Counted from the first letter of the stretch, positions 11,751-21,738 are shown. The stretch: 24,000 nucleotides of DNA from Aigarchaeota archaeon (GCA_025058515.1 JANXDW010000015.1:16937-40936), one strand, 5' to 3'. Notes: generated by a model from the letters alone, not told the origin. Numbers and translations: made by a program.

Positions 11751-11858
11751 GCCCCGGTAGCTCAGCCCGGGAGAGCGCCCGGCTGAAGACTGCTTAAATT
11801 AAGGTGCGGGATCATCGTAGAAACCGGGTTGTCGCAGGTTCAAATCCTGCCCGGGGCA
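11751..11858 (+). tRNA. tRNA-Phe (GAA) with a 34-nt intron at the canonical 37/38 position
   Basis: Hand-folded cloverleaf. Acceptor GCCCCGG/CCGGGGC with discriminator A; D arm GCTC-AGCCCGGGA-GAGC. Anticodon stem CCCGG (11778-11782) pairs with CCGGG (11824-11828); loop is CTGAAG|A with anticodon GAA at 11785-11787. T arm GCAGG-TTCAAAT-CCTGC. Intron is about 11789-11822 and the mature length is 74 nt. No encoded CCA. Confidence 0.9.
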
Positions 11859-18299: not shown

Positions 18300-18325
18300 T
18301 CTTGATGGTTTATGAACAAACGTCG

Positions 18326-18352
18326 TATATAACTCTTGTTTTTCTAGAAAAA
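18326..18352 (-). promoter_or_regulatory. candidate glnA promoter: TATA box plus adjacent perfect 14-bp palindrome
   Basis: On the minus strand, TTATATA (plus coordinates 18326-18332) is centred about 30 nt upstream of the glnA ATG at 18299, which implies a leaderless or very short leader. Six nt upstream of it (after CAAGAG), covering the BRE position, is the perfect palindrome TTTTTCTAGAAAAA (18339-18352). Confidence 0.45.
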
Positions 18353-18607
18353 TGAACAGAAATATATGTATAACTTTGCATATTCAATTCTCATTATTCG
18401 TTATAAACTAGACAAATTTTAACTAATAAAGTTTTTCATTCATTAAATTAATAAACCATCAAAGACCTTTGCTACTTTCACTAAAGAGGTTTATCAAAAA
18501 AACTCATCGTTAGAAAAATAAATGATCATTATGGAGTTGACCTTCTTGATTATACTAAACTATTTATATCGCTTTAAGAATAGTAGTAGCGAACTAAGTT
18601 TAACCTT

Positions 18608-18771
18608 GGGGGCGTGGCCCAGGCTGGTGTAACCTAGTTGTCTCCTAGGGTTTACATCAGGGGGATCAATCCACCCATAGGGCTGACGGTCTACGGCGCC
18701 GGGCTCCAGATCTATCACTACTGGTTAGAGTAGTCACCCGGAGATCCCCGGTTCAAATCCGGGCGCCCCCA
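18608..18771 (+). tRNA. tRNA-Trp (CCA) with at least two introns (D-arm intron plus canonical 37/38 intron)
   Basis: Acceptor GGGGGCG/CGCCCCC with discriminator A; D arm begins GCCC-AGGCTGGT (18617-18628). Anticodon stem CCGGG (18699-18703) pairs with CCCGG (18737-18741); loop CTCCAG|A with anticodon CCA at 18706-18708. T arm CCCGG-TTCAAAT-CCGGG. A 26-nt intron lies at about 18710-18735 and contains the hairpin ACTACT-GGTTAG-AGTAGT. A further 50-64 nt insertion lies between D loop and D-stem 3' strand. The candidate TATA CTTTAAGAA (18572-18580) is about 30 nt upstream. Confidence 0.85.
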
Positions 18772-18780
18772 AACTACATA

Positions 18781-18799
18781 ATTTTTTCATCTAAAAAAT
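18781..18799. terminator. candidate bidirectional oligo-T terminator between convergent tRNA-Trp and GT2 gene
   Basis: ATTTTTT-CATCT-AAAAAAT is an inverted repeat that puts a T6-7 run on both strands. It lies 10 nt after the tRNA 3' end and about 127 nt after the GT2 stop. Confidence 0.45.
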
Positions 18800-18925
18800 A
18801 AGAGAGTATTATTTTTCATGAAGCCTCTTCCTTCAGTTCAAGTCTATTAAAGGTTCAGCCTTTCTATATACCACCTCTCTTTAGTAATCATCTGTTTTAA
18901 GATTGTTATCGATAAGTTACTGTTC

Positions 18926-20281
18926 TCAACTTGTTTTCTCTATAACTGTCCACCTAACACCCTTCCCCACATGTTTAGTCTTCTCCCAGAAAACATCTTT
19001 GAAGATCTGTTGATAGAATGCTCTTATCGCTGCTAAAGGCATCATGAAGTTCATGTAGAAGATCATATGAGGTAAATATTTGATTAAGGTTTTAGCTGTA
19101 CCCATCCCTTCAAGTACTGCTCCCTCTATCCACGTATAGTAATAGATTACGTTGAAGGCTAATGGTAGTATAGCCCACCATGGAAATACATTCTCCATAA
19201 GATTGAGCGGGATTACCTTGAAGTATTCTAAGACCCAGTATATTGTTAGAGAGTATGCTAACCAATTGAGTAAGACCATGATAGGTGCAATAAGCATGGA
19301 GATAATAGATAAAGCATTTATCAAGCTTAACCTCTTTATAACAGTCGGCTTGATAAGAACTCTAAAATATTTCTCTAAACTCTGAATCCATCCTCTAAAC
19401 CATCTAGTCCTCTGTTTCAACCAAGCTTTGAATGTTACCGGTGCTTCTTCCCAATGTCTAGCATCTAAGACCACCACCTTCCTACCAGAAAGATAAAATC
19501 TAACAGTTATCTCAGCATCTTCAGCTAAGTTTAATGGATCCCATCTACCAACTTCACTGATCGCATCTTTTCTTATGTAATTTCCTGTTCCACCTAAAGG
19601 TGTGAAGAAGCCTAGTTTAGACCTACCGTTAAGCATAACCCTAAACCATCCTGCATACTCCATAGAGAATATTCTTGTTATCCAGCTGTCTGATTCATTG
19701 CTTATCCTAAGGATAGCTTGAACGGAGTCAAGGTTATAGTTCTCAAATGCTGATGCGACTTTGATAAAAGTATCTACATCTGGAATATCTTCTACATCAA
19801 CTATTCCTATTATCTCACCTTTACAGAGTGTAAGTGAATCGTTTAAAGCGCTCGGCTTGGTAGGAAAATATTCTCTTCTAATAAGTGGAACCACTCTTCC
19901 AGGATAAACTTGAGAATACCAAGTCGATATCCTCTCACCTACAGGGTCTTCAGTTACAACTATGAGCTCTTTACGGTCTAGAGGATATTCAACATTATTT
20001 AAGCAAACTTCAATCGTTCTCTGTAGTATCGGTTCATCTCTTGCTGGAATTATAAGAGAGATCTTTGGATAAGTTCTCAGCTTAGTTTCAGGGTTGAATG
20101 GTTTCTTTAATCCAATTATCAGTATAACTAGATGATATATCCCCCAGAGAATGTATATTATAGTTAAACTATACGCTGTGAATATTAGCACTGGCTTAGG
20201 ATAGAGTATTAGTAGTAGGATGACCAGTGAGATGACTGTAAAGAATATTACTTGTTTAAATCTCACCAAGAATTCTCGCAC
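18926..20281 (-). CDS. membrane-embedded family-2 glycosyltransferase of the processive synthase type (cellulose synthase/PgaC/NodC-like)
   Basis: 451 aa. Two N-terminal TM helices, then a GT-A core with IIPARDEP, the DxD-like IVDVEDIPD and the catalytic-base context LAEDAE. The Q-x-x-R-W motif is QRTRW (nt 19400-19414, checked codon by codon). Several C-terminal TM helices follow. GTG start at 20281; alternatives are TTG 20269 and GTG 20266. All of these overlap the upstream gene. Confidence 0.8.
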   Translation of the reverse strand: MREFLVRFKQVIFFTVISLVILLLILYPKPVLIFTAYSLTIIYILWGIYHLVILIIGLKKPFNPETKLRTYPKISLIIPARDEPILQRTIEVCLNNVEYPLDRKELIVVTEDPVGERISTWYSQVYPGRVVPLIRREYFPTKPSALNDSLTLCKGEIIGIVDVEDIPDVDTFIKVASAFENYNLDSVQAILRISNESDSWITRIFSMEYAGWFRVMLNGRSKLGFFTPLGGTGNYIRKDAISEVGRWDPLNLAEDAEITVRFYLSGRKVVVLDARHWEEAPVTFKAWLKQRTRWFRGWIQSLEKYFRVLIKPTVIKRLSLINALSIISMLIAPIMVLLNWLAYSLTIYWVLEYFKVIPLNLMENVFPWWAILPLAFNVIYYYTWIEGAVLEGMGTAKTLIKYLPHMIFYMNFMMPLAAIRAFYQQIFKDVFWEKTKHVGKGVRWTVIEKTS

Positions 20282-21227
20282 CGACTATCTTTATAACCTC
20301 ATCTACTACTTTATCTATAGAATTAGATAGATTTTCAACTTTAATTATTTTTACCTTCTCAGGGTTAAATATACTTTCTAACTCTGGTCTAAAGCTTGAT
20401 GGTAATATTATTATCATTACTGAATTAGGGATGTCTACTGCTTCTATACTCATCAAGAGAGGATATCTCTCATCAATAAATTCTTCTGGAGCTATCTCGA
20501 TTATCAATGATGGATCTCCTTTAACGTATACAGGTATAGTATAAGCTACTCCACTCACTCCCTTGAGACTAGCAAATTTTACAACGTCTAACCCAAGTTT
20601 TTCAAGTTCATAAGCGAGAATCTCTACTTGCTCAAATACTTGAGAAAGGCTTTTTGATTTCTCTGACAATCGATATACTGAGCATCTTCTAACTTCTAAT
20701 TGCTGGACTCTATTCTTATGGTTCTTCTCACATTCCACTTCTACTAAAGGAACTTGGAAAACTGTTCTACAATCTCTACATATAAATCCGAATCCAGGTC
20801 TACCGTAGTCTATACCTACTCTCTTCATAACTTTACCACATTTTGGACAATGGTAAACACCTTCACTACTAAGTCTAAATTCTTCTACGCTATCTGTATA
20901 TCCACAGTCATAGTGAATTAAGAGATCCTTCTTTTCAATATTTCGTGAATTACATTCTGGACAAACTAAGAAGATGTGAAGACAAGTGTCTCCACATATT
21001 GGACAAGAGGGAAATGAAACCTCGCCAACGATCTCGATCAAACCTCTATCATAATATATTTTGAGCTTATCTTCTGGAACATCAACTCCGAAGACATCAT
21101 AGACTATCCCTACATCTTGCCTAATTCTAGGTTTAAACTCTACATGCTCATTTCTACGTAAAGCATGATAGACTGATGATAGAAAGTGTGTATCAATTGA
21201 TCTTAATCTCTTAGATTGCTCAGCCAA
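20256..21227 (-). CDS. cytoplasmic double zinc-ribbon protein (4x CxxC; TackOD1-like), function unknown
   Basis: 323 aa with no TM segments. The Cys cluster at aa about 74-153 (nt about 20769-21008) reads CPIC-x10-CPEC-x14-HYDCG-x20-CPKC-x19-CRDC. That gives two C4 ribbons, and the spacing matches my memory of the TackOD1 domain. The N-terminal 70 aa could be a winged helix (..KIYYDRGLIEIVGEV). The C-terminal about 130 aa is an alpha/beta region (GVSGVAYTIPVYV..LIIEI). TTG is the only possible start, because an in-frame stop lies 9 nt upstream. Confidence 0.55.
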   Translation of the reverse strand: MAEQSKRLRSIDTHFLSSVYHALRRNEHVEFKPRIRQDVGIVYDVFGVDVPEDKLKIYYDRGLIEIVGEVSFPSCPICGDTCLHIFLVCPECNSRNIEKKDLLIHYDCGYTDSVEEFRLSSEGVYHCPKCGKVMKRVGIDYGRPGFGFICRDCRTVFQVPLVEVECEKNHKNRVQQLEVRRCSVYRLSEKSKSLSQVFEQVEILAYELEKLGLDVVKFASLKGVSGVAYTIPVYVKGDPSLIIEIAPEEFIDERYPLLMSIEAVDIPNSVMIIILPSSFRPELESIFNPEKVKIIKVENLSNSIDKVVDEVIKIVGARILGEI

Positions 21228-21263
21228 TTGATCTCTTCACTGTAATGTGATAGTTTCAAGGAG

Positions 21264-21272
21264 TATATATAT
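21264..21272 (-). promoter_or_regulatory. candidate TATA box for the zinc-ribbon/GT2 operon
   Basis: TATATATAT is centred about 41 nt upstream of the TTG start at 21227. It is the only strong TATA-like element close to the start. Confidence 0.35.
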
Positions 21273-21738
21273 CAAGCGGTTGTACCGTTTAAAGTATAAG
21301 AATGCTGCTGGGATTTGAAGTAGTATAGATTGATTATACTAATAATTGCCCTGTAGGTACTAGTAAGGTCGGCGGATTCATAAAGTTCGAAAACTAATTA
21401 TCCTCATATATAAGATGGTCTCAGTTTCAAATACTCAAAGTAGAACAATAATAAGGATTCTTTTAAGAAAAACCCGAATTTACATAAGTTCTTAAAGATA
21501 AGAAGATTCTTAATAATCTTAAGGCTAGTCAAGAGGTATATATTAAGTAGAGATAAATTAACCCGATTTACTTATTATAAATTATAAATCTAAAAATACT
21601 GGGAACCGAAAATTAAGCGATGAGATTATCTAAGCTCTATCAAGTACCCTCTCACTCTCGGTATTATCGTTTAGAGGTGTCCGCTACTATAGTTTTCAGA
21701 AAGGTTTAGATACGATAAAATTACGATGGATTGGATTT

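Follow-up and report, generated by a model that had tools for sequence, protein, structure and literature searches.

BcsE (REC*-GGDEF*-GIL), PelD with its degenerate GGDEF domain, and PgaD function as control modules of bacterial polysaccharide synthases that carry the QxxRW motif of glycosyltransferase family 2 (GT2). To our knowledge, the control of exopolysaccharide (EPS) and biofilm formation is poorly understood in archaea, which do without the PilZ/c-di-GMP logic of bacteria. The TackOD1 domain, whose function has been called 'obscure', was described with a pattern of eleven conserved Cys residues, arranged in five CxxC motifs and one HxxC motif, and was reported in the context of type IV pilus loci (Galperin et al. 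2018, PMC5847659). Here we analyze a DNA stretch of 24,000 nucleotides from an Aigarchaeota archaeon, a hot-spring member of the Caldarchaeales (GCA_025058515.1, JANXDW010000015.1:16937-40936; hereafter the window), in which a gene encoding a TackOD1-family protein directly precedes and overlaps a gene for a membrane GT2 synthase. Pairs of this kind recur in dozens of archaeal and bacterial lineages, which points to the TackOD1 protein as an undescribed partner of the synthase, probably a control subunit. A literature search returned nothing that links TackOD1 or arCOG06883 to glycosyltransferases. The two genes are located as follows:

20256..21227, minus strand: TackOD1-family partner gene, 323 amino acids (aa), TTG start, TAA stop at 20258-20256, PF18551 match
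18926..20269, minus strand: membrane GT2 synthase gene, 447 aa when read from TTG 20269, identified by Pfam, AlphaFold2 (AF2) model and Foldseek

To see how far the pairing extends, relatives of the partner protein were surveyed in one genome per GTDB species, which yielded 37 loci with 26-73% identity, 35 of them testable and two ending at a contig edge. The conservation of gene neighborhood that the initial annotation had proposed as a check was found at every testable locus of these Nitrososphaerota genomes: in 35 of 35, an orthologue of the GT2 (50-80% identity) lies directly downstream of the partner gene on the same strand, with an overlapping GT2 start possible in 33 loci and a 6-nt gap in the remaining two. 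The pair is found in Caldarchaeales, Nitrosocaldus, Nitrososphaera, Nitrosopumilales and Nitrosomirales, and the genes that flank it vary among these lineages. A reciprocal check gave the same picture, as GT2 orthologues picked blind to the partner were also preceded by an overlapping PF18551 gene. The GT2 orthologues listed all belong to Nitrososphaerota and measure 327-513 aa.

At the junction itself, both reading frames are as the initial annotation had described them, and it is the extent of their overlap that needs revision. The longest GT2 open reading frame (ORF) covers 18926..20281 on the minus strand and encodes 451 aa from GTG 20281, which had suggested an overlap of 26 nt. Only three start options are available in this frame (GTG 20281, TTG 20269 and GTG 20266), each of them inside the partner gene. 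In the junction alignment the ATG of relatives coincides with TTG 20269 of the window, a conserved GGTG stands 9 nt before this codon, and 'GTG 20281' turns out to belong to that GGTG motif; GGTG and the GT2 start position are kept in loci L004-L014. Because relatives carry ATG at this place after the conserved GGTG, TTG 20269 is the best-supported start in the alignment, and the product is likely 447 aa long with an overlap of 14 nt. The TTG start of the partner gene agrees with its 323-aa relatives. The resulting arrangement is:

20256..20282, minus strand: gene junction, with the Shine-Dalgarno-like GGTG at 20282-20279, TTG at 20269-20267 and TAA at 20258-20256

The pairing is not confined to this orthologous group. 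At E <= 1e-3, a profile search against 1.84 billion cluster representatives returned 1,979 TackOD1-type proteins, and just about 27 of these fall in the orthologous group of the window. We therefore turned to metagenomes, which were scanned with the degenerate DNA pattern CP[KR]C..L...GVDY, a pattern that leaves out the window orthologues (GIDY). The scan yielded at least 120 loci, a pattern-selected convenience sample in which ORFs were called mechanically, and 119 of the 120 loci listed encode a TackOD1 protein. A separate clade of long-form TackOD1 proteins (450-540 aa) extends the synteny well outside this genome: among the matches listed, 64 of 69 testable loci have a GT2 as the next gene downstream, at a distance of -50 to +93 nt, and so do 31 of 35 clusters when grouped at 50% identity and 21 of the 25 formed at 40%. 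Elsewhere in the roughly 1 Mb covered by the long-form loci listed, only 8 further GT2 matches occur. TackOD1-GT2 adjacency is thus far beyond chance and recurs independently in numerous archaeal and bacterial lineages. Named sources of the long form are Methanofastidiosum, where the pair (HOI77128.1/HOI77129.1) is annotated as 'response regulator' and glycosyltransferase, and Segatella copri, whose name is borne by a GT2 cluster of 6,819 members. The module, taken to be archaeal in the initial annotation, therefore also occurs in bacteria.

In the long forms, TackOD1 is followed by a GGDEF domain or preceded by an N-terminal REC domain, and the GG(D/E)EF signature was found in none of the 69 long-form loci listed (0/69). 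A gene of the HlyD family is present in 50 of the 64 long-form GT2 loci and a UDP-sugar dehydrogenase gene in 16 of 64, again among the matches listed; GT2, HlyD and UDP-sugar dehydrogenase together are the make-up of a synthase-dependent exopolysaccharide system. A four-gene module consisting of an HlyD-like protein, a TackOD1 protein of 536-539 aa, a GT2 and a UDP-sugar dehydrogenase was observed in L054, L063, L067, L076, L098, L106, L107, L119, L123 and others, with its GT2 falling in the 6,819-member cluster named after Segatella copri. In the TackOD1 protein of L054, a hydrophobic, transmembrane-like C-terminal tail replaces the GGDEF-like domain. A short-form clade (about 336 aa, wH-TackOD1-Mrr_cat) is abundant and has Bathyarchaeota among its sources (examples are L053, L095, L121, L135, L147, L153 and L157).

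Two further arrangements connect TackOD1 with glycan genes. One is a 318-aa REC-TackOD1 gene that stands tail-to-tail with an operon encoding a 607-aa chitin-synthase-like GT2 and a 641-aa polysaccharide deacetylase:

L046, 2177-6873, and L047, 906-5602: region with REC-TackOD1, chitin-synthase-like GT2 and deacetylase

This chitin-synthase-like GT2 scores 126 bits against the profile of the window GT2, compared to a maximum of 117.8 bits for the GT2s of the metagenome scan. The other is the 743-aa protein P0272, in which an N-terminal half of the UDP-glucose/GDP-mannose dehydrogenase kind is fused to TackOD1 and a C-terminal domain.

The synthase of the pair matches PF13641, PF13632 and PF00535, and the features listed for it in the initial annotation are all found in sequence and model, namely DVED (162-165), AEDAE (253-257) and QRTRW (290-294; all in the 451-aa numbering), two N-terminal transmembrane helices, a GT-A core and a C-terminal bundle. 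Residues D162, E164, D165, E254, D255, Q290, R291, R293 and W294 are invariant across 35 orthologues. The AF2 model calculated from the alignment of these orthologues reaches a predicted local distance difference test score (pLDDT) of 91.2 and a predicted template modeling score (pTM) of 0.89; it places the N-terminal transmembrane helices at 2-26 and 28-57 and the helices of the C-terminal bundle between 284 and 427, so that a transmembrane layout of 2 + 3-4 with interface helices is predicted, similar to that of hyaluronan synthase (HAS) and PgaC. In a Foldseek search of the PDB, BcsA and viral and vertebrate hyaluronan synthases were the top matches (E = 1e-16 to 1e-14), with TM-scores of about 0.6 over 420-445 columns at 13-17% identity. 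These matches, together with QRTRW, speak against a Dpm1/AglJ-type enzyme, which the initial annotation had named as one outcome that would overturn its reading. In NCBIfam, the most similar families are without exception EPS synthases (PgaC/IcaA, EpsU, XrtP-associated, NodC and CelA), at scores far under every curated cutoff: 67.9 against 422.3 bits for PgaC/IcaA (TIGR03937), 29.8 against 550 for NodC (TIGR04242) and 28.5 against 699.1 for CelA/BcsA (TIGR03030). The protein hence belongs to no named equivalog. Since motifs, model and best structural matches fit BcsA and HAS, we assign it as a membrane-embedded QxxRW-type synthase of the BcsA/HAS/PgaC kind with predicted processivity, and as a new subfamily of this well-known kind of synthase.

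The extreme C-terminal tail of the GT2 (aa 428-451, FWEKTxHxGxGVRW) is near-invariant, yet disordered in the model. A basic R-x-R-W end is also present in E. coli PgaC (L169) and in some other TackOD1-linked GT2s. The tail is a candidate docking site.

A hypothetical protein of 'Aigarchaeota archaeon' is 100% identical in sequence to the partner protein, which has about 90 orthologues of 300-360 aa, the nearest species-level relatives being Candidatus Geocrenenecus and Wolframiiraptor. The TackOD1 assignment of the partner, tentative in the initial annotation, is now firm, as the Pfam match to PF18551 reaches 95.1 bits against a cutoff of 32 (E = 5.2e-27) and spans aa 55-187, equal to profile positions 56-188 of 188. 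No other curated family and no solved structure matches the protein in Pfam, NCBIfam and the PDB, and among these resources it has no counterpart in any well-characterized unrelated family either. The protein divides into three parts:

21042..21227, minus strand: N-terminal region, aa 1-62, with a helix at 2-24, three short strands and a helix at 52-60 in the AF2 model
20667..21041, minus strand: putative TackOD1 zinc-ribbon core, aa 63-187, delimited by invariant ligands and the Pfam match
20259..20666, minus strand: C-terminal alpha/beta domain, aa 188-323, with a putative Mrr_cat-like PD-(D/E)xK fold, apparently non-catalytic

The four CxxC pairs and the HYDC motif noticed at the outset are present in the core, with CxxC starting at 75, 89, 127 and 150 and HYDC at 105, and they are joined by C166-x3-H170. 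The ligands C75, C78, C89, C92, H105, C108, C127, C130, C150, C153, C166 and H170 are all invariant in 30 homologues (alignment A1), and because twelve conserved ligands are at hand, they would be enough for three zinc sites. The fifth CxxC of the published TackOD1 pattern is replaced by C-x3-H in the partner, while paralogues retain CxxC at this place. The loop GIDYGxPG (aa 138-145) is likewise invariant in the 30-sequence alignment. The AF2 model of the whole protein has a pLDDT of 83.8 and a pTM of 0.63, with values mostly between 81 and 94 in the core that fall to 71 at aa 131-140, where the GIDYGxPG loop begins. From its sequence, the partner is predicted to be soluble and zinc-binding. 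Weak matches of the TackOD1 profile to RING fingers (E = 0.03) are not evidence of homology.

The possible winged helix that had been proposed for the N-terminus was dropped. Positions 1-55 of the Pfam profile, which resemble a winged helix-turn-helix (wHTH), are unmatched by the window partner; a Pfam scan gave no HTH family match, neither for the whole protein nor for aa 1-74 alone; and the AF2 model is without a tri-helical bundle at the N-terminus. A Pfam match to REC (Response_reg), present in the relatives P0211, P0213, P0311 and the L097 protein, was not obtained for the window partner.

The C-terminal alpha/beta domain suggested earlier is real, and its fold appears to be that of a restriction endonuclease. 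In the AF2 model its topology is alpha-beta-beta-beta-alpha-beta-beta-alpha, in agreement with the alpha-beta-beta-beta-alpha-beta core of PD-(D/E)xK enzymes, and Foldseek matches to PD-(D/E)xK nucleases (Bax1, AF1548, NucS, R2 RLE, Can2/Card1 and Hjc) are weak, though they agree with one another. The window domain scanned alone has no Pfam Mrr_cat match, and its Mrr_cat assignment is indirect, made through aligned paralogues (alignment A3) and the weak Foldseek matches; the equivalent domains of the paralogues P0232, P0249 and P0311 exceed the Pfam Mrr_cat (PF04471) cutoff of 21 bits with scores of 22.7, 23.0 and 47.4 bits. The catalytic Asp site of strand beta2 is occupied by Pro233 in the window and by D, S, T, N or P across the family, and no conserved (D/E)xK is seen in the alignment of the window subfamily. 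The residues that are kept are D265 and N288, both invariant, and P289 in at least 90% of sequences. As Pro233 replaces the beta2 Asp and no (D/E)xK is conserved, nuclease activity appears unlikely, and the partner as an active nuclease was rejected for absence of the catalytic residues.

Taken together, we propose that the gene pair acts as a single functional unit in the production of a synthase-dependent extracellular glycan, in which the TackOD1 protein is a cytoplasmic partner that acts on the synthase protein itself, as a subunit or as a regulator, and we rate the probability of this reading at about 0.5. The GT2 would polymerize sugar from a nucleotide-sugar donor at the cytoplasmic face and thread the growing chain through its own transmembrane channel. 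Owing to the start-stop overlap on one transcript, partner and synthase would be made roughly in step, and the partner might serve as an activating, gating or assembly subunit. The zinc-ribbon core would be the synthase-facing adaptor, and the domain attached to it, a degenerate Mrr_cat-like fold here and REC or degenerate GGDEF in other lineages, may supply the input or drive oligomerization. That the two proteins work jointly on glycan synthesis is what the pairing suggests, and co-translation, physical contact and the direction of control are presumed along with it. Action at the protein level rather than on DNA is favored by the lack of a wHTH in this subfamily and, as weak evidence, by the mildly acidic character of the partner (median net charge -3, C-terminal domain -4.5). 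Moreover, known EPS regulators of the post-translational kind, for example BcsE and PelD, make use of degenerate GGDEF and REC modules. The initial annotation stated that no archaeal control module of this type is established; a predicted precedent does exist in Methanobacteriaceae, where proteins such as MTH_548 join REC and a BcsA-like GT2 in one chain (PMC5847659). These fusions make protein-level control of BcsA-like synthases plausible in archaea.

A broader version of this proposal sees TackOD1 as a widespread synthase-binding adaptor that docks on PgaC/BcsA-like GT2s in Archaea and Bacteria and carries interchangeable input domains. We consider it tentative, at slightly less than even odds. 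The input domains could be REC, a degenerate GGDEF possibly sensing c-di-GMP, or a dead Mrr-type nuclease fold.

Several observations weigh against a partner that acts on the synthase protein. Among the matches listed, a GT2 gene is adjacent in only 2 of 26 short-form loci and nearby in 4 of 26. GT2s adjacent to TackOD1 resemble each other no more closely than they resemble E. coli PgaC, which reaches 53.7 bits against the profile of the GT2 orthologues compared to a median of 65.7 bits for TackOD1-adjacent GT2s, and a single co-evolving pair is consequently not apparent. No natural TackOD1-GT2 fusion was found among about 130 GT2 orthologues or among the listed TackOD1 matches, none of the listed orthologues carrying a TackOD1 domain. 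The pTM of the partner model is just 0.63, and the nuclease-fold matches of its C-terminal domain are weak, with a best E of 4e-4 and low TM-scores. A single ancient clade of GT2s co-evolving with TackOD1 was considered as well and is unsupported, given that the TackOD1-adjacent enzymes score like E. coli PgaC.

The remaining objections lead directly to the rival explanation, a TackOD1 protein that binds DNA as a dedicated transcription factor and autoregulates the two-gene operon. Regulators are often encoded beside their targets, and when co-transcribed with them they give conserved synteny just as a subunit would. Nucleic acid is the usual ligand of zinc ribbons and of Mrr_cat and other PD-(D/E)xK folds. 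The wider TackOD1 family has the wHTH-like N-terminal part, with the corresponding profile segment matched from positions 8-14 in P0213, P0232, P0272 and the long-form clade; members carry the JGI name 'Zn-ribbon and HTH transcriptional regulator', and the short-form sister clade without linkage to GT2 suggests a general regulator family. A REC-wHTH-TackOD1 architecture is described as well (Galperin et al., PMC5847659). On the other side of the balance, precisely this wHTH part is unmatched in the subfamily of the window, whose model is without a three-helix bundle, and the overall acidity of the protein points, weakly, in the same direction. Furthermore, more than 50 distinct archaeal and bacterial lineages keep a strict head-to-tail overlapping order, and fusions to degenerate GGDEF and to a sugar-nucleotide dehydrogenase are atypical for a DNA-binding factor, so that we regard this explanation as unlikely, though it deserves to be taken seriously.

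A different doubt concerns the synthase, which might add single sugars or short chains to a membrane lipid (e.g. archaeal tetraether lipids) or a carrier, with the TackOD1 protein providing specificity or delivering the acceptor. Non-polymerizing GT2/GT21 enzymes, too, can carry QxxRW-type motifs, Glyco_transf_21 is matched weakly by the window GT2 (E = 0.006), the best PDB sequence match of this GT2 is the archaeal mannosyltransferase PcManGT, which superimposes with a TMt of 0.71, and no export, deacetylase or other EPS genes adjoin the pair in the window. The leading structural matches are nevertheless BcsA and hyaluronan synthases over about 420-445 columns, the closest NCBIfam families are EPS synthases throughout, the predicted topology resembles that of HAS and PgaC, and genes typical of secreted polymers (HlyD, deacetylase and UDP-sugar dehydrogenase) accompany related TackOD1-GT2 modules. 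We thus judge a non-polymerizing enzyme to be rather improbable. Least credible of all is an upstream protein that is an active Mrr-type nuclease or belongs to a defense system or mobile element, with its position next to a GT2 meaning nothing. The resemblance of the C-terminal domain to restriction-type nucleases and the Mrr_cat matches of paralogues would agree with it; the Pro233 site that varies in the family, the missing (D/E)xK, the lack of a Mrr_cat match for the window domain alone, the adjacency in 64 of 69 long-form loci among the matches listed against 8 stray GT2 matches per roughly 1 Mb, and the surroundings of the pair in the window all argue to the contrary.

These surroundings consist of unrelated housekeeping genes (glutamine synthetase, CBS-domain proteins and a thioredoxin-reductase-like protein) rather than an island, and the GC content is even across the window. 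Neither an ORF of at least 60 aa nor an Rfam match was found in the intergenic stretches 18300-18925 (626 nt) and 21228-21738 (511 nt) around the gene pair, the latter of which would contain the operon promoter. One element in it was noted by inspection of the sequence only:

21263..21275, minus strand: candidate TATA-like element TTGATATATATAC, about 42 nt upstream of the start codon of the partner gene

A sigma-70 promoter and terminator scan is unsuited to archaeal promoters and was uninformative for this element at 21275-21263. In Nitrososphaerota at large, the recurring neighbors of the pair are lineage-restricted and comprise a copper-type P-type ATPase (11 of 39 loci), DUF998 (8 of 39) and a NAD-dependent sugar epimerase (7 of 39), seen in L001, L041-L044 and other Nitrososphaerota loci; they may recur because local gene order was inherited or because they are weakly linked to the pair in function. 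Elsewhere in the window, a tRNA of 108 nt at 11751-11858 on the plus strand was detected by Rfam (56.4 bits) and is absent from the ARAGORN output; it probably represents an archaeal tRNA with an intron.

TackOD1, a domain of unknown function, comprises about 2,000 clusters at 50% identity, and its strictly conserved genomic partner provides it with a testable role for the first time. If the proposed action on the synthase is true, a dedicated partner of a BcsA/PgaC-like synthase in Nitrososphaerota, ammonia oxidizers included, would be a concrete entry point to archaeal biofilm control. The broader adaptor proposal, if true, would amount to the first post-translational EPS control module in archaea and to a new one in gut Bacteroidota. 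The sister module of Segatella copri, which includes HlyD and UDP-sugar dehydrogenase genes, suggests that this species has a synthase-dependent polysaccharide system so far undescribed, and as an abundant, cultivable bacterium of the human gut, Segatella copri offers a tractable relative in which to pursue the idea.

Plant cellulose synthases (CesA) carry, on a processive GT2, an N-terminal RING-type zinc domain with multiple CxxC motifs and a presumed role in oligomerization. The zinc protein of the window, in contrast, is separate from its synthase and of a different fold class, and we mention CesA as a parallel with no claim of homology. Among the described TackOD1 proteins, the closest to the window partner are the REC-TackOD1 response regulators of Thaumarchaeota (PF18551; arCOG06883; PMC5847659), which belong to the same domain family and share the multi-zinc-ribbon core and the HxxC motif. 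TackOD1 is also known from the same work as a stand-alone protein in TACK archaea, like the partner described here. Unlike the REC-TackOD1 regulators, the window partner is without REC, leaves the N-terminal 55 profile positions unmatched and has C-x3-H in place of the last CxxC, and in contrast to the published type IV pilus context it has a strictly conserved GT2 neighbor that is absent from the papers. The REC-GT2 fusions of Methanobacteriaceae (MTH_548; PMC5847659) likewise tie an archaeal BcsA-like GT2 (PF13641) to a signaling domain, as a prediction, but they are fusions instead of separate partners, and MTH_548 is without a TackOD1 domain.

In comparison with bacterial systems, the window GT2 shares the GT-A core with D, DxD, ED and QxxRW and the transmembrane bundle of the solved processive synthases BcsA (4P00/4HG6) and the Chlorella virus and Xenopus hyaluronan synthases (7SP6/8SMM), from which it differs by the lack of PilZ and an identity of 13-17%. 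The PilZ domain of BcsA, BcsE (REC*-GGDEF*-GIL), PelD and PgaC-PgaD are likewise cases in which a dedicated cytoplasmic or cytoplasm-facing partner is encoded with a QxxRW GT2. PgaD resembles the window partner in that its gene directly adjoins that of its synthase within one operon, and the likeness to BcsE and PelD extends to the degenerate GGDEF or REC domains of the sister TackOD1 modules. The window partner is set apart from the c-di-GMP modules by the lack of a nucleotide-second-messenger domain and by a gene order in which the partner comes first; neither Pfam and NCBIfam at E <= 1 nor the top 50 Foldseek matches in the PDB revealed similarity to PilZ, PgaD, BcsB or GIL/BcsE. Alg8-Alg44 and BgsA-BgsB combine a GT2 with an HlyD/MFP-like protein, and the sister TackOD1 modules also bring together a GT2, an HlyD-family protein and a regulatory protein; the window pair itself is without an HlyD gene, and where Alg44 has PilZ fused to MFP, a separate TackOD1 protein is found here. 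Judged by sequence and fold, none of PilZ, BcsE, PgaD, Alg44, PelD and the REC-GT2 fusions is homologous to the window partner, and the system is best described as a synthase-dependent glycan system with an undescribed partner.

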